From a virus (taxonomy: Duplodnaviria; Caudoviricetes), in IMG/VR virus record IMGVR_UViG_3300028591_000104, positions 1 through 64,000 of that record: a DNA stretch of 64,000 nt; one strand, given 5' to 3'. Positions within the stretch are counted from its first letter, which is position 1, and each line of letters opens with the position of its first letter. The position numbers and the translations under genes were made by a program. This document shows positions 20,046-64,000 of this stretch, in pieces. The notes under the pieces were generated by a model. It was not told the origin of the DNA. It searched no databases and was given only the letters and a program-made list of their open reading frames with translations.

Positions 20046-20348
20046 TCAATACTTCGTCTACATTTCCTTTTCTTCTTTCTTCTTCCAATACTCCTTATGA
20101 CTTTTCTTATGTGCCTACACAGCAGCTTCTGCCGCATTAGCCACTTCATCACTTATCTTCATATCATTTAGTTTATCAGTAAATATATCTTTATACTTAT
20201 AATCACTTTGATTAATCAAAGCTTCTAACTACAACATACAAGCCTTCTAAAAATCTTTACCTTCTAAATACTCAAAAGGCTCAAAAAAATCCGAAGGAAT
20301 CTCCATATCTTCCCCATCATACCAATCATCTTCAATTCTTATCAACAT
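20046..20348 (-). CDS. hypothetical protein with 4 in-frame TAG codons
   Basis: AAGGAG RBS; 100-codon frame to TGA if TAG is sense (e.g. KDF*KACML*LEA). Confidence 0.6.
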
Positions 20349-20382
20349 ACCAAATCTCCTTTCTTACTAACTCGAGCGCGAC

Positions 20383-20434
20383 TCGTTCTAAACTACTAAC
20401 GAGGGACGAAGTCCCGAGTAGTAGTTTAGAACGA
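20383..20434. repeat. 16-bp inverted repeat/hairpin adjoining the iteron array
   Basis: TCGTTCTAAACTACTA / TAGTAGTTTAGAACGA. Confidence 0.8.
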
Positions 20435-20436
20435 AA

Positions 20437-20685
20437 GTTTTCATTAATGAAATTAATGAAAACTATATAGAGGTTTTCGTGTTTTCATTAAATTACTAAA
20501 ATTTTAATGAAATTAATGAAAACCTCGTATTAATAGTTTTCATTAAAACCATTAAAATTTTAATGAAAACCTATTGTTTTTTTAATGAAAACTTATGTAT
20601 AGTTTTCATTAAAAAATTTTCATTAATTTTCATTAACTCATTAAAATTTTAATGAAAACCTCTTAATGAAGGTTTTCATTAATTT
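20437..20685. repeat. iteron-like array (TTTTCATTAA/TTAATGAAAA), candidate replication origin
   Basis: More than 15 copies in both orientations in a very AT-rich tract; further copies at 21288-21320. Confidence 0.7.
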
Positions 20686-21083
20686 TCCCAGGTTGACTTG
20701 TGGCGATTTTTCCATCCCTTATTAGAATAAATTGTATTTGAACTATTAATTCCAAATTCTTTTGCAACTGTCCCCGCATTTGCATTAGGATGTTCCCGGC
20801 AATACAACCATACCTCCTATTCATCAGCAGCTTTAGGCCTACCCCCGAATTTTCCTTTCTCTGCTGCTTCTTCTGTTTTTTCCATTACTTTACCTACCCT
20901 AGGTAAAACTACCCTTAAAGCCATCCTTACCCCCGGTTCAGAAAAACTTTCTGGATCTTGTGGTTCATAATATGCATGGCGCACTATAGCCCCACATATC
21001 TGATCAATTTGTTCTGGAGGCAACTCTTTGATATATGGATCAATCCAATCCTTATAAAATGCAATTCTGTTAACTTCTGCCAT
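20679..21083 (-). CDS. replication-initiator-like protein (DUF6291-like N-terminus plus C-terminal HTH), TAG at 20817-20819 read through
   Basis: FYKDW...GKFGGRPK N-terminus; read-through adds NAGTVAKEFGINSSNTIY HTH and ends at TAA. Confidence 0.6.
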
Positions 21084-21264
21084 TTCTTCCGACCTCCTTT
21101 GTTACATGTAAGAAGGCCTCCTCAAATTCATCTGTCCACTCAAATGCCCAACATTTAAATCCTTTGATGGTTGGGTGCGGCAATTCTTTGATAGGAAACT
21201 ATCCCTACTCCATTAGCCTCCATACGACTTTGCGAGAGTAGCAGATCTTCTACTTTTGTTTCAT
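21070..21264 (-). CDS. small DUF5659-like protein with 3 in-frame TAG codons
   Basis: AAGGAG RBS; MKQK*KICYS...LME*G*FPI..LPHP..GFKCWAFE; stop overlaps the start of the next gene. Confidence 0.6.
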
Positions 21265-21336
21265 GTTCCGTATTTCTCCTTTGTTAGGTTTTCATTAAGT
21301 TTTCATTAAAATTTTAATGAATTGTAACATTTTGTT

Positions 21337-21498
21337 TCATTCTTCATTGGGTTCAAGTGAATCTAAATAATTTTTTATAGCTGTCCTAATAAGCCAGCTT
21401 AATGAAACATCATTTTCTTCTGACAATTTTTTAAGGGTTTGAAATACTTCGGGGTCCAACTGACAAGTTACCCCCACTTTTTTAGTTTTTTTGGACAT
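21337..21498 (-). CDS. ribbon-helix-helix (CopG/Arc-like) regulator, 53 aa
   Basis: AGGAGG RBS; VGVTCQLDPEVFQTLKKLSEENDVSLSWLIRTAIKNYL. Confidence 0.75.
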   Translation of the reverse strand: MSKKTKKVGVTCQLDPEVFQTLKKLSEENDVSLSWLIRTAIKNYLDSLEPNEE

Positions 21499-21623
21499 AT
21501 TAACCTCCTATTCATTCTTATTCACTTATAATGAAAATCACTCGTTTTAAATTACAAATTTTTGACCAATGCGGCAAGATGGTCATACGTCGCCCATTGA
21601 CCAGTATAAAAAAAGGAAGTTTT

Positions 21624-21857
21624 TTAACTTCCTTCTTTGTTATACAATTCTATAACTGCAACAGCTTGTGGACCACGCATACATTCTGGAAATTCAACTC
21701 TTTTAATTAGATATTCTCCATAAATATGCACGGTATAAAAACTAAGTTCACTTAAAGTTCCTTTATAAATATGAACAGGTGCTCCTTCTACCTTTATCAC
21801 TATTTTATCATCTATAAAAAATGGATTAGCATCCAAAAATTGTCTTAAACTCATCAT
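21624..21857 (-). CDS. hypothetical protein
   Basis: Coupled to the upstream minus-strand gene. Confidence 0.55.
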   Translation of the reverse strand: MMSLRQFLDANPFFIDDKIVIKVEGAPVHIYKGTLSELSFYTVHIYGEYLIKRVEFPECMRGPQAVAVIELYNKEGS

Positions 21858-22210
21858 CTTGGTATCTGACCTCCTGCGCCCCAGCCGGTTCTTCCCTGTC
21901 CATTAACCGAATGGCCGCATAATGGACAATTAACATCGCTATCCGCCAACGCTGTACCACAGTTCGCGCACCTCGTCAAGAACAGGTGGCCGCATCCCAT
22001 ACACCTTTCTGCGAAAGCATAATTTTTCATGCCGCAGTTACCACAGGTCTTCCCGAAAAGCTGAAGATACCCCCCAACAATTCCAAGACCAATAGTAAGA
22101 ATGAGAAACAGAGTAGGGATATAATGCGGTAACTTATTACTTAAAATAATACAGAAAATAAGAATTATAAAACTTATTCCTGCACCTAATAAAAATAAAT
22201 TAGTAAACAT
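21854..22210 (-). CDS. membrane protein with double zinc ribbon
   Basis: Two TM segments and four CxxC pairs. Confidence 0.7.
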   Translation of the reverse strand: MFTNLFLLGAGISFIILIFCIILSNKLPHYIPTLFLILTIGLGIVGGYLQLFGKTCGNCGMKNYAFAERCMGCGHLFLTRCANCGTALADSDVNCPLCGHSVNGQGRTGWGAGGQIPR

Positions 22211-22353
22211 ATATAATCTCCTTTATATTTTCTTTTTCCATATAAATATTATAACAAAAATTTTCTTATTTTTCAACTAAGTGGCCGGGCAATATTCGCT
22301 TTTATAAAAAAATTATAATATAATATATCTAGAAAAATAAAGGAGAAATAAAA

Positions 22354-22563
22354 ATGGATTTAGATGATTTAATGTATAATGCTCTTAAAAGAGAAATAGA
22401 TTTTAAACGATTTGCTGAAGCTAATAGAGGAACCAAAGAAGGTCAAATTTATAAAGAACTTGCTGAGGAACAGAATCAACTTTATGGAATCCTTAAGGAA
22501 TATAAAGAATTAAGAGCAGAGTCATCAAGAAACTCTCGAGGATATTGGGGAGAATATGGCTAA
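22354..22563 (+). CDS. hypothetical protein
   Basis: AT-rich promoter, AAGGAG RBS. Confidence 0.7.
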   Translation: MDLDDLMYNALKREIDFKRFAEANRGTKEGQIYKELAEEQNQLYGILKEYKELRAESSRNSRGYWGEYG

Positions 22564-22642
22564 GGTAAAACCTTAGCCATATTTGAATTTTTATAAAAAA
22601 TATGATATAATATATATGTAAAAAATAAAAGGAAAAAATAAC

Positions 22643-23104
22643 ATGAATAAGTACGAAAAGTTAAAGAATTTTATACTTAATGATACAATTAATGGAGATT
22701 ATAAATCAAGTGCTATTGAAGATTTATATTGTTCAAACCGCAACCGAGATATAGAGGTAGCATTACTTACTGGACGTGAAGGAACAGATGAATTTAGTTG
22801 TAATTATGATTCTATCGTTTGTGTTTATTATGATAATGGTTTAAAGATTATAAGTAATCTTAAGCCAGGCAAATGCTATCATTTTAATCGTTTTGTTTTT
22901 AACACTTTCTTAAACTATATGGAATTTAGCGATGTAATTCGAAATGATGGTAAAGTTACTATTAAGGAAATAGTTGATTTAGTAAATTCTTACTTTGGCG
23001 CAGATTTGATAAATTATGAGACTTATGATATAAATTATAATTTTGAAAATGATTATGTAGTACAAATTTTATTTAACTCAAGAGGTAATTTAAAAGATGA
23101 ATAA
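22643..23104 (+). CDS. hypothetical protein
   Basis: Promoter and RBS. Confidence 0.7.
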   Translation: MNKYEKLKNFILNDTINGDYKSSAIEDLYCSNRNRDIEVALLTGREGTDEFSCNYDSIVCVYYDNGLKIISNLKPGKCYHFNRFVFNTFLNYMEFSDVIRNDGKVTIKEIVDLVNSYFGADLINYETYDINYNFENDYVVQILFNSRGNLKDE

Positions 23105-23651
23105 GAAACATGCTTTAGGTTTTGATAAAGGATATATTTATCTCTTTAAAGGAAGTCAGGAGATGTATGATGACTGGTTTAAAGAGAGTATTTGTCGTTA
23201 CCATGGAACCTTCGGATGGTATCTTGCTTCAGAAGATGAGGATAAGTTGATTTCTATTCCTGTTGGTTTAGAGATGATAAAGCTAAACTATGACCAGGTT
23301 TTCGTAGATGAAAATCAGTTAAAGCCAATAGCAGAAATAGAAGCAGCAGTATTTGCTTTAATCTACGGCAATTCCGCTAGTTCTTTTGTCGGTACTATTG
23401 GTCAGAGATTGCCTCTTGTTTTAAAATGCACTTACGCAAAAAAGACTGAGGGTAACTATGGTTCTCAGACATTCCACATGTTTGAGGACAAAGATGGAAA
23501 TGTATATACTTGGTCAACAGCTGCTAAAACATTAGAAGTAGGAAAGATTTATGGATGTAGAGCAACTGTTAAGGACCACAAGATTTATAAGGGACAGAAA
23601 CAGACAGTTTTAACACGAGCTATGCAATTTGAAGAAAAGGAGAATTTCTAA
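23097..23651 (+). CDS. hypothetical protein with possible C-terminal OB-fold
   Basis: FVGTIGQR...FEDKDGNVYTW...ATVKDH..YKGQKQTVLTR. Confidence 0.65.
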   Translation: MNKKHALGFDKGYIYLFKGSQEMYDDWFKESICRYHGTFGWYLASEDEDKLISIPVGLEMIKLNYDQVFVDENQLKPIAEIEAAVFALIYGNSASSFVGTIGQRLPLVLKCTYAKKTEGNYGSQTFHMFEDKDGNVYTWSTAAKTLEVGKIYGCRATVKDHKIYKGQKQTVLTRAMQFEEKENF

Positions 23652-23652
23652 G

Positions 23653-27569: not shown

Positions 27570-28506
27570 TCGCGAAGAATATTCAATGTATAAAAAGATA
27601 CTTGGATTCACTCAGCCAACCTTGCTAAAAGCTATGAAGCTATTTCTAGAAAAATATTATACTAAAGTATTAGCTACAAAAGATTTTGTTATTGCTTTTG
27701 GTGATATTCCTATAGCATTATGCGCGCATCTAGATACGGTGTTTTATACCCCGCCAAAAAACATTTTTTATGATAAAGAAAGTGGAGTAATTTGGTCTCC
27801 TGAAGGATGCGGGCACGATGATAGAGCCGGTGTTTATATGATAATGAAGATAATCCAGGCTGGTTACAGACCGAATGTTATCTTTACAACTGATGAAGAA
27901 ATTGGTTGTAAAGGAGCAGATAAGCTTTGTAATTATGCAAATCCTTTTGAAGATTTGCAGTATATTATTCAGCTTGACCGCCGTGGAATAGATGATTGCG
28001 TATTTTATTATGGAGATAATCAAAAGTTTATAAAGTATGTAGAATCTTTTGGTTTCAGAGAGGCTAAAGGAAGCTTTACTGATATTGTATTTTTATGTCC
28101 TACTTGGGAAGTATGCGGAGTAAATCTATCTATTGGTTATGAAAATGAACATACTTGTATGGAGTATTTAGATGTAGGCGTTTTTTATAATACAATGAAT
28201 AAGGTTATTAAGATGCTAGAGAACCCACCAATAGAGAAGTTTGAATATACAGAAAAACCTGTTAAGTTAGTTAAGAATTTAAAACTTGGAAACAAGTGTG
28301 AGAAATGCGGCCAGACGGTCTATGAACCGTCCGAAGACCTGTTCCCTGTAAAATATAAGGGTGGAAAAAGAAATATTTGTATAGAATGTATGATGGGCGG
28401 AGTAAATTGGTGTATTAATTGTAATGAAGCATTTGAAACCACTAACCCAGATGCAGTTTTATGTGATGAATGTGAAAGAAGTATGAGAGAGGGAGGTCAA
28501 GGCTAA
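27556..28506 (+). CDS. M28-family zinc aminopeptidase-like protein with C-terminal Zn ribbons
   Basis: AHLDTV, GHDDRAG, TDEEIG, QLDRRG, NEH motifs. Confidence 0.85.
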   Translation: MNRFNREEYSMYKKILGFTQPTLLKAMKLFLEKYYTKVLATKDFVIAFGDIPIALCAHLDTVFYTPPKNIFYDKESGVIWSPEGCGHDDRAGVYMIMKIIQAGYRPNVIFTTDEEIGCKGADKLCNYANPFEDLQYIIQLDRRGIDDCVFYYGDNQKFIKYVESFGFREAKGSFTDIVFLCPTWEVCGVNLSIGYENEHTCMEYLDVGVFYNTMNKVIKMLENPPIEKFEYTEKPVKLVKNLKLGNKCEKCGQTVYEPSEDLFPVKYKGGKRNICIECMMGGVNWCINCNEAFETTNPDAVLCDECERSMREGGQG

Positions 28507-28712
28507 TGAATCATTATTTAATAATTTTGAAACATGGTACTAAGATTTTAGTCAAAGCAGATAAATTTTATATTGCTTCTGATGCTATGTAGTTTTGTAA
28601 TGAGCTTACTGAAGAACTTATAGCCTATTTTAAAACAGAAGAAATAGTAGGTTGTACTAAAATCAATATAGAAGAACTTGATGACATATTAAATTTTTTG
28701 GAAGGAGACTGA
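28506..28712 (+). CDS. small protein with in-frame TAG at 28590
   Basis: GGAGG RBS; TAATG and TGATG coupling at both ends only if TAG is sense. Confidence 0.7.
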
Positions 28713-31013: not shown

Positions 31014-31892
31014 ATGGGATGCGGAAGCTATACAGCACATGATTGGGATAAGTTGAAAACATCGAGAGGTATTACTAATAGCTCTAATGAAAGAGAGCTT
31101 TTTACGAATCGTACACTTTTGGATAAGTTTAATCCTTACTATATTAATGTAAGAGAGTCGAGAGATAATGATGAGCACCCTAATTCTACACCAATTGCTA
31201 TTGGACTTGATGTTACGGGTTCTATGGGTTATCTTCCTGCGGAAATTATTAAGAATGGACTCAATGAATTGATGAAGAAGTTGTATGCTTCTCAGGTAAT
31301 TCCTGACCCGCAGCTTATGTTTGCAGCTTGCGGTGACTATTGTGATGATGCTCCTCTTCAGATTACACAGTTTGAATCGGATATTCGTATTGCAGAACAG
31401 CTGATGGAACTCTATCTTGAAGGTGGCGGCTGGGGCAATGGCGGTGAGGATTATCAGTTGTTCTGGTACTTCCTCGGTAAGCATACTGATACCGACTCGA
31501 TGAAGAAGAGAAACAAGAAGGGTTATGCCTTTACTATTGGCGATGAACCTGTGCATAAAGTGATTCATAGAGAAACTTTTAAGAAAGTATTTAATGAGAT
31601 TCATCCTACTATGGATACAGCCGAAGCACAGGCAATTTGTGAAGAGAAGTATAATCTTTTCCATATTAATATAATTAATTGGTATGGTAGCACACATGAA
31701 GTTGTTCCTGGTAAGACTATTCAGATAGACAGAAATGAAGTTACTTACTTGCCTGAGATTATTCTTACAGTTATTTGTAAGATTGAAGGAGTTAACCCGA
31801 CAGAAATCCTTGGTGACCTGGATAAGAATGTAGAAAAAATCGTAAATAGAGCAATAAAAGATATAAACTTTGGAGAAAATATTGAGATATGA
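31014..31892 (+). CDS. vWA-domain protein
   Basis: MIDAS LDVTGSM, GGGWGNGGE, FTIGDE. Confidence 0.8.
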   Translation: MGCGSYTAHDWDKLKTSRGITNSSNERELFTNRTLLDKFNPYYINVRESRDNDEHPNSTPIAIGLDVTGSMGYLPAEIIKNGLNELMKKLYASQVIPDPQLMFAACGDYCDDAPLQITQFESDIRIAEQLMELYLEGGGWGNGGEDYQLFWYFLGKHTDTDSMKKRNKKGYAFTIGDEPVHKVIHRETFKKVFNEIHPTMDTAEAQAICEEKYNLFHINIINWYGSTHEVVPGKTIQIDRNEVTYLPEIILTVICKIEGVNPTEILGDLDKNVEKIVNRAIKDINFGENIEI

Positions 31893-33007
31893 ACATAGCA
31901 GTAATCGGAGCTAATTTTGGTGATGAAGGTAAGGGACTTGCGGTAAACTATTTTACCAAAGAGGGAAAGAATCTGGTTGTGCGCCACAATGGTGGCGCGC
32001 AGTCAGGTCATACCGTAGAAGTGGGAGACAAGAGATTTGTATTTCACGAGCTTGGCTCCGGTTCTTTTAATGACGCTGCTACCTATTGGGATGTTACTTA
32101 TCATCCTGACCTTTATGTTTTTAATAAGGAATTTGATGATTTTTATAATCTCACCAAAAAACATGCAAAGATTTATTGCCACAAAGATACTAAGATTACT
32201 ATAATTGATGATGTTTTTCTTAACTGCTTCAAAGAAACACAGAAGAAGGCAGGAAGCTGCGGTATGGGTATTTGGGAGTGCGTCTGCCGCAACAATGCTG
32301 GATATGGTCTTACAATCCAGGAGGTAAAAGACCTTTCTGTAAGAGAATTATATCATAAGTTGCTTTTCATCAGAACTAATTATACTTTAAAGAGATTAAA
32401 CTATCTTAGAGGAAAGTTTGGAAACAATGAATTTTCTGAAAAGATGAATGATGCTGTATTGTTATATAACTATGCAGTAGCTATTAAGTATAATGTTGAT
32501 TATATAGAGACAATAGAAGCACCTCATTTCCTTTTTGATAAGTTTGATAATGTTATCTTTGAGAATGGTCAGGGGTTGCTCTTAGATGGAGATTATGATG
32601 TAGTTCATGGTACTCCTTCTAAAACAGGTTTGTATAATGTAGTAAATAGCCTCGCGGCCGCCGGTAGAAAACTCGACGAAGCAGTTTATGTTACAAGAAC
32701 TTACTTAACCAGACATGGTAGGGGTGACTTTGTAGTAGAATGTGATAATCTGATTAAAGATGATACAAATATTTATAACGAATGGCAGGAAGGTATTCGT
32801 TATGGGAGATTTGACTCTTTGGATAACCTTAAAGCAAGAGTCAATGAGGATTGCAAGGTAGTTAAACCTCATTTGTTAATTACTCATGCGAATGTTACCG
32901 ACGGTAAAATGCTAACCGCAACCGGAGCAGAAGATATTAAGAATTTAGACTTTGAGAAAATTTATATTTCAGATAACAAGTTTACTGTAAATAAAGTGAT
33001 TGTTTAA
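31889..33007 (+). CDS. purA: adenylosuccinate synthetase-like protein (PurA type, not PurZ)
   Basis: GANFGDEGKG, GGAQSGHT, GSCGMG, FENGQG, TRHG. Confidence 0.8.
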   Translation: MNIAVIGANFGDEGKGLAVNYFTKEGKNLVVRHNGGAQSGHTVEVGDKRFVFHELGSGSFNDAATYWDVTYHPDLYVFNKEFDDFYNLTKKHAKIYCHKDTKITIIDDVFLNCFKETQKKAGSCGMGIWECVCRNNAGYGLTIQEVKDLSVRELYHKLLFIRTNYTLKRLNYLRGKFGNNEFSEKMNDAVLLYNYAVAIKYNVDYIETIEAPHFLFDKFDNVIFENGQGLLLDGDYDVVHGTPSKTGLYNVVNSLAAAGRKLDEAVYVTRTYLTRHGRGDFVVECDNLIKDDTNIYNEWQEGIRYGRFDSLDNLKARVNEDCKVVKPHLLITHANVTDGKMLTATGAEDIKNLDFEKIYISDNKFTVNKVIV

Positions 33008-36366: not shown

Positions 36367-36771
36367 ATGTTAATAGAAAACAATAAACAAAAAGGAAATG
36401 CTGGATTGGCATTAGGAATAGCTTAGTTTGGTGCTAATGGTTATACAGTTTCTTTACCTCTTAATGATACTCAATGGTATGATTTTATTGTTGAAAAAGA
36501 TGGTATTTTTCAAACTGTTCAATGTAAGTTTACTGACTCTAAAGATAATAGAATTAGTTTAAGATCTACTGGAGGAACTAATGGTAAAGTATATGACAGA
36601 GTAATTGATCATCCAATAGATTTGTTATTTTGTTCTAATGCAAATAATATGTGGGTTATTCCAATGGAAGAATTAAGATTACAAGGAAATGTTAGTTCTA
36701 TAGCTTTAAGAACAGAATTAAATTCTAATAATCAAGGTTTTGAAACTTGTAAATATTTAGTAAAAATTTAA
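36367..36771 (+). CDS. PD-(D/E)XK homing endonuclease (I-Ssp6803I-like), TAG at 36424
   Basis: KGNAG..GIA*FGANGYTVSLPLND..WYD..VQCK; absent from the ORF track because of the TAG. Confidence 0.8.
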
Positions 36772-36774: not shown

Positions 36775-36860
36775 GGAAGAGTAAACCGTAATTGGTAGCG
36801 GGCGTGGCTGTAGACCACGTGTCAGTGACTCTGGGGGTTCAAGTCCCTCCTCTTCCACCA
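36775..36860 (+). tRNA. tRNA-Tyr(GUA)
   Basis: Loop CT-GTA-GA, long variable arm, G1-C72, A73, CCA. Confidence 0.85.
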
Positions 36861-36865: not shown

Positions 36866-37418
36866 CGAAGCATCTTCTAATGGTTAGGAAACTTGTCTGA
36901 TTTGAAGAATTAATCATTAATTTTAAACTATGTTAAATACAAAACAGCGTGGAAACATAACAGAATTACAATGTATGTTAGCATTTTTAAAATTAGGATA
37001 CAATGTATTAACTCCTTAGGGTGATTGCGAACGATATGATTTTGTAGTAGATATAAAAGGTAATTTTTATAGAATACAAGTTAAATCGGCGAATGCAAAC
37101 CACCTAGAAGAAGGATATATAGTATTTAATACTTCTAATAAAACTACTAGGGGAGGAACTTTTGTTCGTCATCCATACACAAAAGATGAAATTGATTATT
37201 TCGCAACATTTTTTAATGAGCAATGTTATTTAGTACCAGTGAATGAATGTAGTATTTTTGAAAAAAGATTACGATTTACTCCTCCAAAAAATGGACATAC
37301 TAAAGGAATAACATTTGCTACTGAATATGAATTAGAAAAGGTGGTGAAAAAAATAATTAATGAATAACATCTTTGAATCAAGCAAGTAATGGTAGTTCGA
37401 TTCTATCTGCTTCGACCA
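36866..37418 (+). tRNA. split tRNA-Ile(GAU): exons 36866-36901 and 37380-37418 with a 478-nt insertion
   Basis: Joined halves give CGAAGCA/TGCTTCG acceptor, CTTGT-CTGATAA-GCAAG anticodon arm, T-arm and ACCA. Confidence 0.8.
36930..37367 (+). CDS. PD-(D/E)XK homing endonuclease inside the tRNA-Ile insertion, TAG at 37017
   Basis: KQRGNITE..LGYNVLTP*GDCERYDFVVD..RIQVKS..EIDYF. Confidence 0.85.
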
Positions 37419-38981: not shown

Positions 38982-39351
38982 GGGGGTGTAATAGGTTTCG
39001 ACAGGGTTAAAAAGTTTAGATAAGCGAACAGAGGATTCTCGTTGTGCCTCTATAAAAAACGAGAACTTTTAAATATAATCGCTAATGATTACGCTTTAGC
39101 AGCCTGATAATGCTGCCGTTTACTTTATTTAATCTGTAAGATAAGGTAAATGTACGGTTTCAGACCTTGATTATTAGAGGTGAAATAATCAAAACTTATT
39201 TTAGTGGTTCGGCTAAGATATTTTATTCAGAACTCCTTGATTATTAATTTGCCAATAGAGGAATAATTAAAGGATAAATAAATATTGGCTATGTTCGTAG
39301 AAAGTCTAAGGTTTTTAGTTTTGGACAGGGGTTCGACTCCCCTCACTTCCA
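38982..39351 (+). ncRNA. ssrA: tmRNA, tag (A)ANDYALAA
   Basis: GGGGGTG..TTCGAC 5' end, G3-U70, 3' T-arm, tag ORF ending YALAA-TGA-TAA. Confidence 0.92.
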
Positions 39352-39514
39352 ATCTGACATAACAAAACCCTCCACGTGGGGTCAGATGGGCAACATATTA
39401 TTTATGGCTAATTTTGTTAAATTTTATAATTGAGTTCGAAGAATGAACTCTGACCCACAAAATTCATTGGTCAATTTTTTATAATTTATCTATTAAATTT
39501 TTGAAGTATAATAA

Positions 39515-39616: not shown

Positions 39617-40357
39617 ATGAATAGTAAAAACAAAGGTAATATTGGAGAATCTCAAGCTTTAGCTGAATTTACGAAAAGAGGAATACAAGTTTCTATTCCT
39701 TTTGGAGATAATGCTAGATATGATTTAATAGCAGACTTCAACGGAAAATTAAATAAAATTCAAGTAAAATAGTGTAATCAACAAATAGTAAATGGTTCTA
39801 TTAGTTGTCCTTGTGCTAGTAGTACAAATCATACTACAAATAAGCATTATGATACTTATAAAAATGATATTGATTATTTTGTATTTTATTTAGTTGAATG
39901 GGATGACATTATTATTGTTCCTATTGAAGAAATAGGAGATAAAAAAGCAATCTGTTTTAGAAAATCAATACCTGTTTCGAGTCAAAATTATCATTTAGTA
40001 CAAGATTATACTTTTTCTAAATTTTTTGATGATAAAAAAGAAGAAATAGAAGAAAATCCAATTATTGCTCTAAAAAAAATTACAGATAAAAAGAATTATT
40101 GTATAGATTGTAACACTCCCATTACTAAAGGGGCTGTAAGATGTATGAGCTGTGCCGCAAAATTGCGACCTAGGAAAGTTGAAAGACCGACAAGAGAAGA
40201 ATTAAAACAGTTAATTCGTCATGTTCCATTTGTCAAATTAGCTGAACAATATGGAGTAAGTGATAAAGCAATAGCAAAATGGTGTATAGCAGAAAATTTA
40301 CCATCTAGAAAAAAAGATATTTTACTTTACTCTGATGAAGAATGGGATAAAATTTAA
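39617..40357 (+). CDS. PD-(D/E)XK homing endonuclease with C-terminal Zn finger and HTH, TAG at 39770
   Basis: AAGGAG RBS; KGNIGE..VSIPFGDNARYD..KIQVK*C; in frame with the 40145 ORF. Confidence 0.82.
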
Positions 40358-42606: not shown

Positions 42607-42697
42607 CGGGCGGTATGCAAGTGGTCAAAGTACGCGGACTCTAACTCCGATGCCAGTAGCTAAGGCTTCGCAGGTTCGAATCCTGCCCGCCCGACCA
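42607..42697 (+). tRNA. amber suppressor tRNA (CUA) with a tRNA-Tyr-like body
   Basis: Loop CT-CTA-AC (CTA at 42641-42643), GCGGA/TCCG stem, AAGTGGTCAAA D-loop, variable arm ending TTC, C1-G72, A73, CCA. Confidence 0.92.
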
Positions 42698-42700: not shown

Positions 42701-42775
42701 GCTACTGAACCTCGTCGGCCGGGGGAGGCGCCGCAACCGCCTCGTTAGTTGGTTCGACTCCAACCGGTAGCTCCA
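42701..42775 (+). tRNA. tRNA-Cys(GCA), C33
   Basis: Loop CC-GCA-AC, U73, CCA. Confidence 0.8.
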
Positions 42776-44355: not shown

Positions 44356-44427
44356 CGGGATATGGTCTAGAGGGCTAAGACGCCGGCGCGGAGCCGGAGA
44401 CGTGAGGTTCGAATCCCACTATTCTGC
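44356..44427 (+). tRNA. atypical tRNA-Pro(CGG) or tRNA pseudogene
   Basis: C1-G72 acceptor, loop CG-CGG-AG, bulged T-stem, no encoded CCA. Confidence 0.5.
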
Positions 44428-48134: not shown

Positions 48135-48219
48135 TGGGGGGTGTCCGAGTGGTTAATGGAGCCAGGCTTTGACCCTGGTAGCTTAGCTTTCGTGGGTTCG
48201 AATCCCACCCCCTCAGCCA
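48135..48219 (+). tRNA. tRNA-Gln(UUG) with an unusual long variable arm
   Basis: U1-A72, G73, loop CT-TTG-AC, variable arm TAGCTTAGCTTTC. Confidence 0.85.
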
Positions 48220-48833: not shown

Positions 48834-51800
48834 ATGGCAACAGTTGACAATAGAAGTATTACAACTAATATGGAAGAAATATTCCTCTTACAGTCCATGG
48901 ATGGCGGCGGCTCGGGTAGTGGCGGTGGATTTAACGGTAAATATTTAGCCATTGAAGCTGCCTTAAATCAGCAATTCGGTGAACCATCTATATCAATGGG
49001 TACTAAAAGCTATGCTGCTAAATATGGAAGTATTGTAGTTGGTACTGACAGCAAATCTGGTGAATATAACACTATTACTTTTGGTAATAATAATGTAAAT
49101 ACTAGTTATGAAAGTTTAGTATTGGGTAATAGTAATGAAATACATATGACCTATCCAGCTAGACCAGAAATAGCAGGTCTTATAGTAGGTGGGCATAATA
49201 ATAAACTTTATCCTATATTGTATGATAGTAATTATAATCGAATTACTATTGAAGGAGTTGTTCCTGTTTATTATTTTGAAGGTTCTTTTTATGAAAGTTT
49301 GGATTATGTAAATCCAACCACCCCTGAGAATAATAAAATTTATGTTGATTTATTATCTGATACTGATAATAGATATTTATATTATAATGATGAGCTTTTT
49401 AGTTTTCAAGCATTGAAAAATTTAGGTTGGATAATTCCTGATACTAGTATTTTAGGTATTATTTCTGGTGAGAATAATGTATATAGAATAGGCAGCAATA
49501 ATGATTGGGCCTGTGTTTATAGTTTTGGAGATGCAAATAAAATAATTAATGAATTTAATGATAATCTTCATTTTATAGCAGGGCAAGATAACGAAATAAG
49601 TGTTGTAACTAACAAGGATAAAAATCATAATATTCCAGACTCAGAGAGTACATTAGTTGCTTTTGGTAGCCGAAATAAAATAGATTTACAAGTTAATTCT
49701 AAAGCAGGTAGTCAACTTTATTTATTAGGCTATAATAATGAATTTTCCAATGAAAATATAACTTCTAAGTTTGATAGTACTGATGTTAATTTTATATGTG
49801 GGGAAGGAAATAAACTTTTAATAAGAGATCAATATAATGATAAGAATAATATAACTGTTGAAAATAATATTATTTTTGGTAGAGGCAATAAATTAGAGTT
49901 TAGTAATTATAACTATATCTATGGACTTAATGGATATAGTAATATTGTCTTAGGTGAAAATAATAAAATTTTTGGACGTGACGCTCATAGTGGCACTAAT
50001 ACCAATCGAAATATAATTATAGGTCAAGATAATAAAATTGGTGGTAATGAATATGATGTAGAAGAAAGAAAATGTGATTCTTTACATCAAAATTATATCT
50101 TTGGTAATGATATAGAATTATCAACTACAGGAGATTTAAAAGATAATGTTTATCTTGGTAAATCTCATGGATTAACATATAATCCTTCTGTAATTAATAA
50201 CGTTATTGGTGGAAATCAAGTATTTTTTAAAGGTTCTAAATAGTGTAGTGATAATTTATTAGTTGGACCTAATTCAAGTAGTTTAATAGTTAGTGGTTCT
50301 GGTAATTTAGGCTTAGGAAAAAATTCAATTTATGGAAATAATTGCGTTGTTGTAGGCGAAGATAATACGATTAAAGCTAATATTAGAAATATCGGAGAAT
50401 ATTATTCAGGTAGTATTTATAATGAAGGTGATTTTTGTTATTATAATGATATTCTTTATATTTGTAAAAGTAATAATGTAACCGGTCCTTTTAATATGCA
50501 AAATTGGTAGGAACCTGAATTAGGTAACTATTCATATATTTTTGGTAGAAGGAATGGTGTAAATGGTGATTATAGTATTGTGATTGGAGAACTCAATGCA
50601 GTAACTGGTGATTATAATGTTGTATTTGGAAAAAATAATACTATTACTAAAAATTATAATGCAGCATTTGGTCATGACAATTCTATGAATGGTTCTTATA
50701 ATAGCTTAACTTTTGGAGAACAAAATATAATACAATCAAGTGATAGTTTTGTCGGAGGATATTATGGAAAATCGACAGGCACAACTGGTTTTTGTTTTAG
50801 CGGTTTAGGTACTACCCCCGAGGAATTTTATGGTGTAGATTTAATTTATTATTTTCCAGAAGCGGATGAAATAACAGATGAGCGCATTATTTTTAATACA
50901 GCTAAATCCGTAACTAAAATTACAATTAAATTAAATTATACTACTAAAACTATAGAAGCTTTAAAACGTGTAAGCGCAGCTGCTATTTACGCTAGTAATT
51001 TACAAAGTGGATTTGGTTAGTATGATTTAAATAATCCTGATGGGCCTCAAGTAGGAGGTACTAGTTTTGGAGTTGATCCTAGTCAACAAGATTTATTAAT
51101 AAGTTTAGAAAATCCAGAGCTTACATTAAATCTTAGTTCACCCATATCTATGCCTGCAAATAGATTTATTAAAAGAAGTGAAATATCAGGATGGACCTCA
51201 GCATGTGTCGGTTATGGTCCTAATATTCAATCTTCTGATAAATCACAAGTATTAAAAACGGGTGGAGTAGCTATAGGTACTGGTGTAATAGCTAATGGTA
51301 TGTGTCAAACTGTTATAGGCAGAGGTAATATATCAGATTCAGATAGTTTATTTATTATAGGTAACGGTAGAATTACACCAGCTTATGATGCAAACCATAA
51401 TCCTTATAGTGATACTTTAGATAGGTCTAATGCACTTACTGTAGACTGGGATGGTAACCAAGTACTTGCGGGCAAGCTTACTGTCGGCACGCAACCTACG
51501 GCCGCGAATGATGTAACCACTAAAACATATGTTGATACAGCAGATGCAGCTATATCAGCCGAAATTGAAACTCCTATAACTGGACTTAAAGCACGCATGA
51601 CAACAGCCGAAGGCGCGATTTCAGATCTCGAAACAACAGTTGGAGATAGCACATCAGGCTTAGTTAAAGATGTAAATGATTTACAAACTGAAGTAGAAGC
51701 TTCTACTACTGGATTAATAGATAGAACTACTAATCTTGAAACAACTGTAGGTGATAGTAATAGTGGTTTAGTACATGATGTAGACGACCTTGAAGATCGC

Positions 51801-52070
51801 GTAACTACACTTGAACAAGCACCCCTTCCTACTGTATCACTTTCTCAAACCAATACAACAATTACTGGTTTGTCACAAGGAGATACTGATATAACATTAC
51901 CTTCTGGATATACTGATAATAGTATTGTAGATATTTATATAGATAGATTGCATTATTGTAATATTTTAGATTTCACAATTAATCAAGGTATTGCTTCTTT
52001 CTCTACTTCTCCAATAGCAACAGGAAATGAATTAGTTCAAGTTAGTATAACAAATGTTAATATATCTTAA
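48834..52070 (+). CDS. tail fibre/adhesin-like protein (1078 aa); TAG at 50241, 50508 and 51018 read through
   Basis: Three track ORFs share one frame, separated only by TAG; continuous G-x-x-N beta-repeats, YadA-like C-terminal part and coiled coil. Confidence 0.82.
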
Positions 52071-56363: not shown

Positions 56364-57140
56364 ATGAGCTATAAAGATTGTGATATAGTCTATATCCTAA
56401 AAGATGGTATAGACCCGGCAGAATTAACATAGTCATTAAGAAGTGTAGATAAAAATTTTCCTCATAGAAAAGTATGGTTTGTGGGGGCACAACCAGAAGG
56501 TTTAACCCCTGACCTCAGGCTGCCGCACAAGCAATCTGGCTCTAATAAGTGGGAAAGAGTCTGCTCTTCTTATCTTAAAATTTGTAATAATCCTACCATA
56601 AGTGAGAATTTTTTCTTATTTAATGATGACTTTTTTGTACTTAAAAGAATTGATAGAGACGATGAGTTTATTAATTTTGTAGACGGAACTCTAGAGAACA
56701 GGGTGAAAAAATTAAATAATAATTTGAATGGAAGTTCAACTTATTCAAAAAAATTGGCTGATTTATCAATTTATTTAAAGATGAAGAATTTAGACACAAT
56801 GAATTTTGCTTTACATTTACCCTTTTTATATAATAAATCTTTAATTAAGAAAACTCTTAATGAATTTCCTAATAGTCCTATGTTTAGATCGGCTTATGGG
56901 AATTTAAATGATGTTCCTTATAGATCTCATAAAGATATAAAAATTTATGATAGAGTAACAATTCCAGGTGAAGATTGGGATTATGTCTCAACTACAGAGG
57001 AAACTTTTGCTAAAGGAAAAGTAGGAGAATATATCAGAAACCTTTTCCCAGAACCAAGTAGATTTGAACCTGGTTATTATGAGGCTAAAACTAAGGAGTT
57101 ATAGACGGAAGAAGGTGAAGAAAGATACCATGTACTTTAA
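56364..57140 (+). CDS. Stealth-family-like hexose-phosphate transferase; TAG at 56430 (and probably 57102) read through
   Basis: DIVY..ELT*SLRSV..KVWFVG..SENFFLFNDDFF resembles Stealth CR1/CR2 motifs; AGGAG RBS. Confidence 0.72.
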
Positions 57141-57441
57141 TTTAAGAGTTAATAATAAATATATGTTATAGGCAGTTGAAGATAAAAATGGAGATGGAGA
57201 TTATTATATTGCTTATCCATTAGAAGAAGATATAAAATTAATTGCCCAATAGGAAGAAAGAAATACAGTTATAGAAGGTATTCCTACTGATACTAATACA
57301 TCTTTTAGAAAATTCTATGGACGTTTTTATGATGTAAAAATTAATGAATACGGCGGAATTAGTTTTAGAATTAAATCTGCTGTCGAATCAGTACATATAA
57401 GTCCTAATGGAGAAATAGAAGTAGAATGGAATTATTATTAA
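57130..57441 (+). CDS. hypothetical protein with 2 in-frame TAG codons
   Basis: Fills the gap exactly if TAG 57169 and 57250 are sense; ends TAA. Confidence 0.6.
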
Positions 57442-57681: not shown

Positions 57682-57867
57682 ATGATGTTGATTAAAGTAT
57701 CCTTTGCCGTAACTTTATTCTTATTTGCGATTTTTGTTATACTAATATTCTTTGGAGAGATTGGTGTAAAGAGATTGGCAAAGAGTCTTGATGTTCTTTA
57801 TTTCATTGGCTCATTCTTTGGCTTTATGCTTTTGGCTATTACTTTATGGGGGGTTTTTAGTTTATGA
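57682..57867 (+). CDS. small membrane protein
   Basis: Two TM segments. Confidence 0.6.
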   Translation: MMLIKVSFAVTLFLFAIFVILIFFGEIGVKRLAKSLDVLYFIGSFFGFMLLAITLWGVFSL

Positions 57868-58121
57868 AATATGTAACTCATAGATTTTTTTGCCCTCGAT
57901 GCGGCGAGGAGACTCTGCCCGTGGTCAGAAGCACTAGTAAGTTGCGCGAGAGAGGTCACTTAAAGAAATTATATTGTTATCACTGTAATATGACCTTAAA
58001 TATGGTAGAGTGCAGAGATGAGTTTGAGGTAAGAGCATTTAAAGAAGCATTTTTAGCTGGTGATTTAGCTGAAATAGTAGATGAAAGTGAGATAATTGAT
58101 TGGAATGGGAAAAATAATTAA
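57864..58121 (+). CDS. Zn-ribbon protein
   Basis: CPRC...HLKKLYCYHC. Confidence 0.7.
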   Translation: MKYVTHRFFCPRCGEETLPVVRSTSKLRERGHLKKLYCYHCNMTLNMVECRDEFEVRAFKEAFLAGDLAEIVDESEIIDWNGKNN

Positions 58122-59755: not shown

Positions 59756-59768
59756 AGGAGACAGAAGA

Positions 59769-59972: not shown

Positions 59973-60119
59973 CGGTTGAAATAACATTGACTGATATAAT
60001 TTGCCGCTATATTGCAGGTATTAGTGTTATTCTTTGTATTATTCTATATTTCTATGATAAGCACAAAATGACTAAATGGCTAAAGGAAAATTTAAAAGAT
60101 AGGAATAGTAAGGAGGTAA

Positions 60120-60497: not shown

Positions 60498-60512
60498 GAA
60501 AGGCGGTGCGGA

Positions 60513-60713: not shown

Positions 60714-60715
60714 GA

Positions 60716-60907
60716 ATGAGTGATGAATTAAAATCTTGTCCGTTTTGTGGTAGTAGTGCAACAGTATGGTATCGTATGGGCCACATAGCGACTGTTGTAT
60801 GTAACAACGAATATTGCGGTTGTATCTATGGAGATAATATGTCTCTAACAGATAAAGAAGCTGTTAAATTGTGGAATAGGCGGTCTTACAATGAAGGGGG
60901 TGAATGA
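60716..60907 (+). CDS. Lar-like restriction alleviation protein
   Basis: ELKSCPFCG..AVKLWNRR. Confidence 0.7.
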   Translation: MSDELKSCPFCGSSATVWYRMGHIATVVCNNEYCGCIYGDNMSLTDKEAVKLWNRRSYNEGGE

Positions 60908-61302
60908 GAATGACAAATAAAGAAATTATTAAATATTTAATTGCACCAGTTGCAACAAGTACAGAGCCAAGTGCTGAATACTTGAAACAGAAAGAAGCCT
61001 ATGACCTTGCTATCAAGGCTCTTGAAGAACAAAGACCAAAAGGCATGTGGATACACAGACGAGTTATTGCAAAAAATAGGTCATTTGATATGGTAGTATG
61101 CTCTAACTGCTGGGAAGAGTTTAGCTGGGATGCTGAAACAGGAGTATCTATGGACAATTATGAGACTTGTCCAAATTGTGCCGCAGATATGAGAGAAAAT
61201 AATAATGTATCCTCAAAATACAATTCTAGTATCAACACTAGTATGGAAGATATTATGTCAAATCCTGAACTCTACAAGCATTGGATAGAAATTTCTAGAT
61301 AA
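60904..61302 (+). CDS. Zn-ribbon prophage-type protein
   Basis: RPKGMW..CSNC..CPNCAADMR. Confidence 0.7.
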   Translation: MRMTNKEIIKYLIAPVATSTEPSAEYLKQKEAYDLAIKALEEQRPKGMWIHRRVIAKNRSFDMVVCSNCWEEFSWDAETGVSMDNYETCPNCAADMRENNNVSSKYNSSINTSMEDIMSNPELYKHWIEISR

Positions 61303-61315
61303 AAAGGAGAAAAAA

Positions 61316-61513
61316 ATGGAAAATTATAATTTTGCGCAACAGGGTTGGCAATGCCCCTTATGTAAGAGAGTGTATTCCCCATCTACTCCATGTTGTTTTT
61401 ATTGCGGAGCGGAGGGCATGGCTAAGAGTGTAACAACTACAACTTTGGATATTGGCATTTATCCATTAGAAGAAGAAGATAATACCTCGAGTATGAAAGG
61501 AGAAGAGGAATGA
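61316..61513 (+). CDS. small Zn-finger protein
   Basis: QGWQCPLCKRVYSP..CFYC. Confidence 0.65.
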   Translation: MENYNFAQQGWQCPLCKRVYSPSTPCCFYCGAEGMAKSVTTTTLDIGIYPLEEEDNTSSMKGEEE

Positions 61514-61725
61514 TACCTATTGAATTTTATTGGTGCGAAGAAACACCTACATTAGATGATGTAAAGTTTGCCTATGAACGAGTAAGGCAAGGTGTGGTTG
61601 TAATGATTAAATGGTGGGTAAGGTATAGTGGCCACTATGAAAAAATAGTTACACCTGAAACTATAAAAGATATGGATGAAATTACTTATTTCAATGAAAT
61701 AATTCCACATTGTTATGGTGTATAA
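61510..61725 (+). CDS. hypothetical protein
   Basis: ATGA coupling. Confidence 0.6.
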   Translation: MIPIEFYWCEETPTLDDVKFAYERVRQGVVVMIKWWVRYSGHYEKIVTPETIKDMDEITYFNEIIPHCYGV

Positions 61726-61907
61726 AAGGTAAGCAAACAATTACCTTGTCCATATTGTAAAGACAGGAGTGATGAAAATAGTGCTGAATGATGGAACAGA
61801 GATTCCTGTTAGTATTTATATTGATTATATAACAAGATAGCCAATCGCACAAGAAGATTGGGATTTGATACTTAAGGAATGGGAAAAGGAAATAAAGGAG
61901 ACAAATA

Positions 61908-62447
61908 ATGAGAACGATTGATGCAGATGAATTTAAGCATACAATCTCAAGTGGTATGTGTACGGATAGTATTACATTTTCTATTCTATTGGGAATGATG
62001 AATGGTAACACTAATCTTGATGAAACTACTAATAAAATAGTTCGTGAACATATTAAAGAGGTAAATAGGCTTATTGACAATGCCCCAACAGTTGAATCAA
62101 AAAGACTACGAGGCAAGTGGATAGAAAGAGAAGATATGGACTATCTTGATGAAAATAAAGTAATTCATAAACACTTTGAATGTAACAAATGCGGACTTAT
62201 TCATGATTTTATTGATGGACATACATCACAATATAACTTTTGCCCTAATTGTGGTGCAGATATAAGAGGTGAAGAAAGAATGAAAGAAATATTAGATGTA
62301 ATTCATAAGACAATATATCAATTCTTTGATGTATGTGGAGACGATGAAGAAGTACCTATGTCCGACAAGGACAAACTTCTGTTAGAGGTTAATAAGGCAA
62401 TTTGCAATAATCTAAAGGCATTACAGCAAGATGAAGGAGAAAGGTAG
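61908..62447 (+). CDS. Zn-ribbon prophage-type protein
   Basis: MRTIDAD..NAPTV..GKW..FCPNCGA. Confidence 0.7.
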   Translation: MRTIDADEFKHTISSGMCTDSITFSILLGMMNGNTNLDETTNKIVREHIKEVNRLIDNAPTVESKRLRGKWIEREDMDYLDENKVIHKHFECNKCGLIHDFIDGHTSQYNFCPNCGADIRGEERMKEILDVIHKTIYQFFDVCGDDEEVPMSDKDKLLLEVNKAICNNLKALQQDEGER

Positions 62448-62448
62448 A

Positions 62449-62757
62449 ATGAGACCAATTGATGCTGACGCTTTACAAAAGGTAATAGAAGAAGTTTATT
62501 TTAGTGATAAATGGCTCGATTTTAGAGTCAACTATGGATCAAATGGTGTAAGAGATGTAATATTAGATCTCGTAACCAATGCTCCTCCCATACCTAAAGA
62601 AAAACCAAGCAAAAATAAAATACGACACGGAAAGACGTTATACAAAGTACAGATTAAAGATAAAACTTACTGTTGTGGAGATAAACTATTACGTATAGTA
62701 TCTGCTATTCTTCATGTAATAGAATTAGGATTTATTATTTATCTGTTTATGAGGTGA
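62449..62757 (+). CDS. prophage-type protein with C-terminal TM segment
   Basis: MRPIDADAL..NAP. Confidence 0.6.
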   Translation: MRPIDADALQKVIEEVYFSDKWLDFRVNYGSNGVRDVILDLVTNAPPIPKEKPSKNKIRHGKTLYKVQIKDKTYCCGDKLLRIVSAILHVIELGFIIYLFMR

Positions 62758-62945
62758 GAGAATGAGCAGACAAGATGATTTATGGACAAAAGACCCGATG
62801 CCAATATGGAAGAAAATACTAATTGTTACTTTTATTCTCTTCATCGCTTGGGTCATTGGAGTAAAGATAGAATACGCAGATAAGCCTATGAGCGAAGTGC
62901 CATACTGGGTTATTTGGTTTACATAAGAATAAAAGGAGATAAAAA

Positions 62946-63170
62946 ATGCACAATAAAAATAAGAAATATTACGCTTTTAGCAGACCAAACCAGATGATAG
63001 GACATAGATTTACAGATGATGTTGCTCTGTGCAAAGCTACATCGTTTAGACAGGCAAAGAAAATATTCAGCAAGTATTATGCTGATATTAAAGACAATGA
63101 AATCATGCTAATTAGTGGGATGCTCAATAACGGTGTGTATGGTGATGTTATAATTCTCACTGATTATTAA
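62946..63170 (+). CDS. hypothetical protein
   Basis: AAGGAG RBS. Confidence 0.65.
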   Translation: MHNKNKKYYAFSRPNQMIGHRFTDDVALCKATSFRQAKKIFSKYYADIKDNEIMLISGMLNNGVYGDVIILTDY

Positions 63171-63186
63171 AAAAGAAGGTGATATA

Positions 63187-63378
63187 ATGGCAAATATAAG
63201 ATGTATGTTAGGATTTCATAAATATACAGAATTTTATAAACGGTATCGAGTGATCGGCCCCGATCAATGGTATAGTCACGTTAAAACTTGTAAGATTTGT
63301 GGCAAGTCAGAATCTGAATTTGTTAAAATACCCACAATATTAGCAAGAGAATTTGAAAGAGATAATAATGTGATTTAA
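63187..63378 (+). CDS. small Zn-binding protein (C-x-x-G-x-HKY family)
   Basis: Similar to 63576-63776. Confidence 0.6.
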   Translation: MANIRCMLGFHKYTEFYKRYRVIGPDQWYSHVKTCKICGKSESEFVKIPTILAREFERDNNVI

Positions 63379-63575
63379 AGAGGGACAAAATAATAGTGAT
63401 AACAACTATAATAGAAGAAATGTTTAAAGGAAATTTTTCTTTTCTTATATTAGTTGTAGGTATTTTACAGCTAATAGTTATGAAATAAAAAGTCCTTTAT
63501 AATAGGACTTTTTTGTATTTTATAAAAAATTATGATATAATATAAATATATATAAATAGGAAGGTAAATTTTAAG

Positions 63576-63776
63576 ATGCACAAACTTGTTTGTAAGATAA
63601 GTGGTGGCCATAAATACGAAGATAAAAATTTAAAATGTACTTATGATGTGACTACCAATACTTATATTTTTTATAATTATTGTGTAAAATGCGGAGAAAG
63701 AATTGAATTTAGTGAACCAGCAAAAACCTTCCTCTCTGATTTTGATAAAGCTTTAAGGGAGTTGTTTCAAAAATGA
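63576..63776 (+). CDS. small Zn-binding protein (C-x3-GHKY family)
   Basis: Promoter and RBS. Confidence 0.6.
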   Translation: MHKLVCKISGGHKYEDKNLKCTYDVTTNTYIFYNYCVKCGERIEFSEPAKTFLSDFDKALRELFQK

Positions 63777-63864
63777 TATACGTGTAAAATAAAAGGTCAA
63801 AATCATGAAACCCGTATCATAAAATTTTTATTATATATGTAATAATAAAAAGGAGGATAAATAT

Positions 63865-64000
63865 ATGGGTTATATTTATAAAATTACAAACAATATCAAT
63901 AGAAATATTTAGATAGGACAAACAAATATTTCTGTAGAAGAAAGATTTAAGGCTCATTGCTATTGTTCATTTAATCATAGGCAAACAAAAGGAAAAGATG
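63865..64000 (+). CDS. GIY-YIG endonuclease (5' part, runs off the window); TAG at 63910 in the YIG motif
   Basis: AAGGAGG RBS; MGYIYKITNNINRNI*IGQT...ERFKAH. Confidence 0.85.

Follow-up and report, generated by a model that had tools for sequence, protein, structure and literature searches.

TAG-interrupted genes of the window

The stretch of DNA analysed here, referred to below as the window, is the first 64 kb (positions 1 to 64,000) of a single 150,486-bp phage record in IMG/VR, IMGVR_UViG_3300028591_000104, with a completeness of 93% according to CheckV. Genes along this window are interrupted in frame by the amber codon TAG. TAG is a sense codon in this phage and has very probably been reassigned to tyrosine through a phage-encoded tRNA bearing a CUA anticodon, tRNA(CUA), with TAA and TGA kept as stops and the first ~20 kb of the genome written in the standard code. 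Charging of the tRNA by the host and a temporal switch between the two codes would complete this picture.

The large terminase of the phage is 47% identical to those of the Enterococcus phages H1 and EF1, 46% identical to that of Geobacillus virus E3 and 39% identical to that of the human-gut phage phAss-1, whose capsid protein shares 44% identity with its counterpart here. No GenBank phage was found above about 52% identity in terminase or capsid protein. Related DNA was gathered from IMG/VR around the capsid and terminase genes and around NrdD, and the TAG-bearing proteins were aligned to it by tblastn. The related contigs are designated L006, L256 and so on. The genes of the window with in-frame TAGs are the following, where RBS stands for ribosome-binding site and aa for amino acids.

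20046-20348, 20679-21083 and 21070-21264, minus strand: three leftward genes with 4, 1 and 3 TAGs, respectively; RBS and frames confirmed; these are the first sense TAGs of the genome
26769-27569, plus strand: gene with TAG 26790; RBS and frame confirmed; without an informative homologue
28506-28712, plus strand: small gene with TAG 28590; RBS and frame confirmed
36367-36771, plus strand: PD-(D/E)XK endonuclease gene with TAG 36424; Pfam E-value 4.6e-15
36930-37367, plus strand: PD-(D/E)XK endonuclease gene with TAG 37017; Pfam E-value 1.4e-32
39617-40357, plus strand: PD-(D/E)XK (PDDEXK_5) endonuclease gene with TAG 39770; Pfam match spanning the TAG, E-value 9.7e-29
48834-52070, plus strand: tail-fibre-like gene of 1078 aa with TAGs 50241, 50508 and 51018; an uninterrupted single gene in L256, at 79% identity
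55093-56229, plus strand: leucine-rich-repeat (LRR, BspA-type) fibre-like gene with TAGs 55132 and 55573
56364-57140, plus strand: gene for a Stealth-like protein with TAGs 56430 and 57102; 585 homologues
57130-57441, plus strand: small gene with TAGs 57169 and 57250; frame confirmed; a gene call of equal size (103 aa) stands at the corresponding place in L256
57846-58121, plus strand: small gene with TAG 57858
63865-64000, continuing to 64512, plus strand: GIY-YIG endonuclease gene with TAG 63910 within the YIG motif

An initial annotation, made from the letters of the window alone, had pointed to thirteen of these genes (57846-58121 lay outside its list) as being broken only by TAG. This is correct for every one of them: each has an ATG start and, with TAG as the only stop in frame, extends to a TAA or TGA or runs off the window end. 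The TAGs at 63910, 56430, 37017, 36424, 39770 and 55132 also lie exactly where they had been placed. The accompanying claim that all thirteen are led by an RBS stands for ten, which have a clear AGGAG-type site, and falls for those starting at 36367, 36930 and 57130, where the site is weak or missing.

That TAG is translated is evident from the genome as a whole. Greedy open reading frame (ORF) cover rises from 0.802 under the standard code to 0.907 with TAG as sense, compared with 0.826 for TGA and 0.875 for TAA, so that the comparison of coding densities proposed as a check in the initial annotation gives a gain specific to TAG. In 10-kb steps from 100 to 150 kb the cover improves from 0.75-0.90 to 0.94-0.99, and neither TGA nor TAA as sense brings a comparable gain. 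ORFs of 3087, 1493 and 1092 aa contain 6, 6 and 3 in-frame TAGs and zero other internal stops. The alignment of NrdD with PDB entry 8p23 spans residues 2-737 with four TAGs inside it, and homology similarly continues past the TAGs of TerL, portal-region and tail genes. Of the 163 genes on the dominant strand, 116 end in TAA, the main stop.

Contigs assembled independently from different samples, at least five in number (L007, L008, L094, L256 and L258), have TAG in the same columns, and the TAGs are therefore not assembly errors, a possibility the initial annotation had left to be checked. Sense TAGs are rare and occur at 1.8-4.0 per 1000 codons, or 3.5-7.4% of TAT, TAC and TAG taken together; off-frame TAG reaches 17-33 per 1000 in the same regions. 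The leftward structural module at 103-148 kb has them most often, in 20 of its 31 genes, and others lie in NrdD, RecJ and ligase genes of replication and nucleotide metabolism, in genes for homing endonucleases and in the window's fibre-like genes.

The residue at TAG

The alignments support Tyr as the residue inserted at TAG. A strict filter on TAG columns demanded an ungapped alignment with at least five of the twelve neighbouring residues identical. Among 27 informative columns the majority residue is Tyr in 22 and Gln in none. Tyr is conserved at 0.73 in these same alignments, so that a count of 22 in 27 agrees with expectation for a Tyr codon. The log-likelihood of the TAG profile is best for Tyr (-27.9), with Phe as runner-up (-68.0) and Gln outside the top six. 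This tabulation of majority residues, made from tblastn alignments, comes out dominated by Tyr, rather than by Gln or a mixture of residues, and the proposal of Tyr instead of Gln in the initial annotation is borne out.

NrdD relatives at 55-86% identity have Tyr opposite TAG codon 168 in 14 of 15 cases and TAG in the remaining one, Tyr opposite codon 409 in all 14 and, opposite codon 417, Tyr in nine and Phe in three. NrdD homologues in the PDB, which show Tyr, Trp, His and Glu in the TAG columns, are too distant to fix the residue. When ten residues were tried at the TAGs, the Pfam NRDD score was highest with Tyr, the full spread being within 1.7 bits.

Exchange between codons was followed in five close relatives from different samples (L006, L007, L008, L094 and L256). 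Opposite the TAGs of our phage, the 45 codon pairs include TAT 16 times, TAG 15, TAC six and TGG two. In the opposite direction, TAGs of the relatives face TAT 29 times, TAG 15 and TAC five. Not one of 597 Gln codons, CAA or CAG, stands opposite a TAG. Since TAG exchanges with TAT and TAC among close relatives in this way, it acts as a third synonymous Tyr codon.

Genes of the window provide individual examples. TAG 63910 of the GIY-YIG gene faces Tyr in 23 of 23 homologue alignments, six of six under the strict filter, as the initial annotation had deduced from the motif. Its assignment of Tyr to TAG 56430 of the Stealth-like gene likewise agrees with 113 of 117 homologues, and TAG 57102 of the same gene faces Tyr in 54 and Phe in six. 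Gln occurs in the Stealth-like TAG columns too, and where this was traced (protein P0001, 93% identical) it came from a public gene call in which TAG had been rendered as Gln. The Pfam Stealth_CR2 profile scores best with Tyr at the TAGs, at 29.9 bits against 24.5 for Gln, both below the family cut-off of 39.4. TAG 55132 of the LRR gene, earlier aligned with a Tyr of an in-window paralogue, is matched by TAG in L256 and L258 and by TAT in L257, a homologue in the standard code. TAG 57858 faces TAC in a 99% identical L256 protein.

The same cannot be said of the three PD-(D/E)XK genes, whose motifs had also been used to argue for Tyr. These arguments are weak, the columns being variable (Phe/Leu, Ala/Glu and Phe/Ser). 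The column of TAG 37017 contains Phe, Met, Val or Leu, that of TAG 39770 varies without fixing the residue, and TAG 36424 faces Tyr in three of four weakly aligned homologues. Elsewhere the available relatives were of limited use. Those of the DUF7788/VWA gene beside the tRNA cluster (71 loci, at most 50% identity) give almost no information on the window TAGs, the fibre gene at 111209-114487 has no relatives in IMG/VR, and a comparison of the LRR protein with 1.84 billion representatives was swamped by giant LRR proteins, with P0179 and P0262 the useful matches.

The suppressor tRNA and the early block

A phage-encoded tRNA(CUA) is common, though not universal, among amber-recoded phages. Such a gene lies among the 26 tRNA genes and one transfer-messenger RNA (tmRNA) gene that ARAGORN finds in the window, together with an ordinary tRNA for Tyr.

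42607-42697, plus strand: tRNA(CUA) suppressor of 91 nt, found by ARAGORN; 44.1 bits with the Rfam tRNA model
36775-36860, plus strand: ordinary tRNA-Tyr(GUA), not closely similar to the suppressor, whose nearest tRNAs belong to other phages

The suppressor, which the initial annotation overlooked, has a variable arm of the long type (class II). Its acceptor stem has seven pairs, of which C1-G72 is the first; the discriminator base is A73 and the CCA is encoded. In a comparison with 574 other tRNAs predicted in phage contigs, the five closest to it are all tRNA-Tyr(GUA), though only 16 of the 574 are Tyr tRNAs; C1-G72 is shared by two of the five, those of L032 and L083. Tyrosyl-tRNA synthetase (TyrRS) recognizes its tRNA mainly by the identity elements A73 and U35, and it is the change of G34 to C34 in tRNA-Tyr that makes the Escherichia coli suppressor supF (tyrT su3+), which reads UAG as Tyr using the ordinary TyrRS. 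tRNA-Gln, by contrast, is typified by a weak 1-72 pair and G73. On these features we read the tRNA(CUA) as tRNA-Tyr-like and as a natural counterpart of supF. Like supF, it combines a body of the tRNA-Tyr type with a CUA anticodon and keeps U35 and A73. Unlike supF, it is a natural and fixed part of the coding of a phage, where it would serve upwards of 100 sense TAGs; its first pair is C1-G72 where supF has G1-C72, and its charging with Tyr is predicted.

A TyrRS or release factor encoded by the phage itself was considered, and searches of the genome found no member of the TyrRS/TrpRS family, no release-factor domain and no PylS. Since the phage has no TyrRS of its own, the tRNA would be charged by that of the host. 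In the mechanism we propose, tRNA(CUA) charged in this way would read TAG as Tyr in competition with host release factor 1. Early genes would be read in the host code, with TAG terminating them, and TAG-bearing genes would be completed only after the suppressor has accumulated.

Searches for similar tRNAs returned little. An exact pattern of the anticodon arm and variable arm has no matches in viral contigs or in metagenome contigs, and a pattern from the 3' half matches twice in bacterial genomes, neither match being a tRNA. The neighbouring Metallophos gene, used as query, yielded no useful relatives; identical genes neighbouring the suppressor are present in a 145-kb ENA contig. No theta ribozyme was detected next to the suppressor. 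A looser pattern retrieved 53 tRNA(CUA) genes of other kinds, the most similar being that of L178.

That gene (8018-8108 of L178, minus strand) belongs to a huge phage contig of 436 kb, IMGVR_UViG_3300028840_001395, and encodes a tRNA(CUA) of 91 nt with C1-G72, A73 and a long arm; local ORF cover there rises with TGA as sense and shows no gain with TAG. Many other IMG/VR phages (L153, L226, L235, L236, L164, L212, L193, L146 and others) encode tRNA(CUA) of 88-91 nt in which an inserted arm with the motif CTCTGAAGG accompanies a U1-A72 body, and these look like a recurring family of long-armed amber suppressors. At 42701-42775 (plus strand), three bases after the suppressor of our phage, a cloverleaf is called tRNA-Cys(GCA) by ARAGORN; it has C33 in place of U33 and no Rfam tRNA match.

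The reassignment does not extend to the start of the genome. Each TAG before 20 kb lies near the end of an ORF or upstream of a likelier start, with no convincing sense TAG among them. One gene of this block was compared with its homologues:

5746-6180, plus strand: early gene ending at TAG 6178-6180, the natural stop position of its family

The C-termini of 91 of its 94 homologues lie within four residues of the TAG, 70 of them within one. TAG is therefore still a terminator in the first ~20 kb, as checked against homologues for this gene. The block also differs in GC content, 0.36-0.44 against 0.30-0.42 elsewhere in the window. In 849-1124, 1238-1579 and 17876-18304 a TAG precedes the next TAA or TGA by 4-14 codons, and these TAGs are likely to be genuine stops, each backed up by a second one. 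The initial annotation missed the standard-code block, as it did the four exceptional TAGs and the other meanings of TAG in sister lineages described below. In phages that have recoded TAG to Gln or TGA to Trp, Borges et al. (bioRxiv 10.1101/2021.08.26.457843) described an early block in the standard code followed by recoded late genes. The arrangement here matches theirs, which suggests the same temporal switch.

Sister lineages, alternative explanations and known recodings

The meaning of TAG in relatives was approached by a reverse test, in which the residues of our phage that face their TAGs were tallied. Tyr prevails opposite L006 (8 of 11), L007 (8 of 13), L008 (10 of 15) and L094 (9 of 14). 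Opposite L009 (22 of 41), L010 (10 of 12), L011 (22 of 41), L090 (6 of 9), L100 (9 of 13) and L102 (4 of 8) it is Gln, and opposite L012 (6 of 9) and L013 (10 of 15) it is Trp. Taken by column, Tyr has the majority in 24 of 38; for Gln the counts are 20 of 41 and 16 of 28, and for Trp 14 of 20. In a tree of four concatenated structural proteins the Tyr clade is sister to the Gln clade plus the Trp clade, with supports of 0.97-1.0. From the tree and these readings together, the meaning of amber has changed at least twice in the group. A sister lineage thus appears to read TAG as Trp; it comprises L012 (IMGVR_UViG_3300021387_000303) and L013 (3300028048_000052), and also L095 and L098. A search of the 12 tRNAs of a complete 175-kb genome of the Trp type, G001, found no tRNA(CUA); for Trp this genome has only a tRNA-Trp(CCA). 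The 188-kb genome behind L011, of the Gln type, encodes a 91-nt tRNA(CUA) in which G73 is combined with an A1xC72 mismatch and an extra arm of unusual length.

Public gene calls for P0001 (in L256), P0179 (in L258) and an ENA contig in ERZ27256846 agree with the DNA only when TAG is translated as Gln; the public pipeline had thus used code 15 for the Tyr clade, at sites where homologues conserve Tyr. A wider proposal, towards which we lean slightly, is that a single family of large Bacillota-type siphophages uses amber for Tyr, Gln and Trp in three sister clades, the first of these being an undescribed phage code served by a natural supF-like tRNA with C1-G72 and confined to the non-early region, perhaps as a timing switch. 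If so, genes moved between the clades would be mistranslated, which could bar recombination; such inter-clade exchange might explain the fibre TAGs aligned with Trp and Gln, and standard pipelines would silently mistranslate the Tyr and Trp clades as code 15.

Several observations weigh against the reassignment of TAG to Tyr in our phage. Five of the 27 informative columns have a different majority, one each of Phe, Val, Leu, Glu and Ser. Four TAGs in the fibre genes of the window do not face Tyr: in L256, the closest relative, 50241 and 51018 lie opposite TGG (Trp) and 50508 opposite ATG (Met), and 55573 is opposite a genuine CAG or CAA (Gln) in two homologues, L258 and L257. The main oddity of the suppressor is its C1-G72, an identity pair of archaea and eukaryotes that is atypical of bacterial tRNA-Tyr, normally G1-C72. 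Pattern searches and neighbour-gene searches, moreover, found no equivalent suppressor in any relative for comparison. In the tail-fibre-like gene, a TAG of L256 in turn stands opposite TGG in our phage. TGG to TAG and CAG to TAG are each a single transition which, with TAG as Tyr, is a missense change from Trp or Gln to Tyr and not a nonsense mutation. Missense change in fast-evolving receptor-binding genes is thus the simplest account of the exceptional sites. Fibre segments imported from sister lineages with TAG as Trp or Gln, or some ambiguous decoding, are possibilities.

Ambiguity could in principle be more general, with TAG decoded mostly as Tyr and appreciably as Gln and/or Trp, through a mischarged tRNA(CUA) or a second decoder, and the mixture tolerated. 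The four fibre TAGs opposite Trp, Met or Gln would fit, as would the use of TAG for Gln and for Trp in sister lineages, and amber suppressor tRNAs, supF mutants included, are prone to mischarging by glutaminyl-tRNA synthetase (GlnRS) through the CUA anticodon. Yet the deeply conserved columns have Tyr throughout, without Trp or Gln, close relatives exchange TAG with TAT or TAC 56 times, with TGG three times and with CAA or CAG not at all, C1-G72 with A73 is unfavourable for both GlnRS and tryptophanyl-tRNA synthetase, and single-transition missense in fast-evolving genes explains the exceptions more simply. We consider such general ambiguity unlikely. Code 15, with TAG as Gln, is very improbable: it is the code of the relatives phAss-1, L009-L011, L090, L100 and L102 (and of Lak and crAss-like phages), it is what public gene calls put at the TAGs of the clade and it suits one TAG, 55573, but it is confronted with an absence of Gln from the majorities of the 27 columns, with 597 Gln codons of which none faces TAG in close relatives, and with a tRNA(CUA) whose A73, C1-G72, long variable arm and tRNA-Tyr neighbours are not those of a tRNA-Gln.

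There is similarly very little probability that TAG stands for one of the other aromatics, Phe or Trp, or for a non-standard residue (pyrrolysine or a modified Tyr, for example) occupying Tyr-like positions. A few columns do have Phe or Trp, and ARAGORN labels the tRNA(CUA) 'Pyl', from the anticodon alone. The log-likelihood is nevertheless worse by 40 units for Phe and by 59 for Trp. For pyrrolysine, tRNA-Pyl has a compact shape and lacks a long variable arm, unlike the 91-nt suppressor, and PylS was not found by a search that matched 13 of 14 control genomes, above the family cut-off in one. Finally, for the TAGs as errors of assembly, or as inactivating mutations of a genome in decay, nothing speaks beyond the in-frame stops themselves; genes are interrupted only by TAG and never by TAA or TGA, the TAG columns are repeated in at least five contigs and a dedicated tRNA(CUA) is present, which together make this account hardly credible. 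Reassignment of TAG to Tyr thus remains the explanation we prefer.

The phage shares much with the gut phages known to translate TAG as Gln, namely Lak, crAss-like, Garnet/Topaz and phAss-1 phages (Borges et al.; Peters, PMC9523058; Babkin, PMC10607447). In both, amber is a sense codon enriched in structural and late genes, there is a tRNA(CUA) of the phage's own and an early block in the standard code, and a dedicated synthetase is lacking. The differences are that the residue here is Tyr and that the suppressor resembles a tRNA-Tyr with a long variable arm rather than a tRNA-Gln. As in NCBI code 29 (nuclear code of Mesodinium, TAA and TAG to Tyr) and other eukaryotic stop-to-Tyr codes, Tyr is assigned to a stop codon of the TAR box, which lies a single step from TAY. 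Unlike in code 29, only TAG is reassigned, with TAA as the main stop, and the change is viral, borne by a tRNA and limited to part of the genome.

The initial annotation called the code unusual for phages, and this fits the literature that could be searched. Borges et al. saw only TAG to Gln and TGA to Trp in phages with a code unlike that of the host, phAss-1 was reported to use TAG for Gln (Babkin et al., PMC10607447) and the models of Mgcod cover TGA to Trp, TAG to Gln and TAA to Tyr only. Searches for TAG to Tyr led only to papers on eukaryotes, mitochondria and giant viruses; they covered few subscription journals, so that an earlier description is possible. The one hint found comes from the theta-ribozyme study of Kienbeck et al. 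2024 (PMC10879173), in which 180 suppressor tRNA genes of phages included 1.1% predicted as the Tyr isotype and 19.4% as the Trp isotype. The isotypes there are tRNAscan scores only, TAG columns were not analysed and the authors favoured code 15, but their presence hints at amber meanings other than Gln in gut phages.

TAG to Tyr would be a new amino-acid assignment within the known amber recoding of phages, where stop recoding is currently treated as two cases, TAG to Gln and TGA to Trp, the only ones offered by prodigal-gv. Existing annotations would then have the wrong residue at every TAG of the clade, and the host synthetases that phages can co-opt would be a wider set than Borges et al. 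proposed. The Tyr, Gln and Trp clades may offer a natural setting in which to follow the evolution of codon reassignment and to ask whether incompatible codes limit gene exchange, and genetic-code engineering gains a candidate part in the tRNA(CUA) with C1-G72 and its long variable arm.

The window contains further features of interest. The tmRNA gene (38982-39421, plus strand) encodes the tag peptide ANDYALAA and is directly followed by a match to the hepatitis delta virus-like ribozyme family RF02682, at 41.6 bits against a cut-off of 44; this match resembles the theta ribozymes that process tRNA 3' ends. Among the tRNAs, one at 44356-44427 (plus strand) is recognized by Rfam and missed by ARAGORN, and an 85-nt tRNA(UUG) for Gln at 48135-48219 (plus strand) pairs a Gln-like acceptor end (U1-A72, G73) with a long variable arm, unusual for a tRNA-Gln. 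The gene at 31889-33007 (plus strand) encodes a homologue of adenylosuccinate synthetase (PF00709, E-value 1.3e-30) with a PHROG match to '2-aminooxy adenylosuccinate synthetase'. We take its product to be PurZ-like, which would hint at DNA containing 2-aminoadenine, the Z base.

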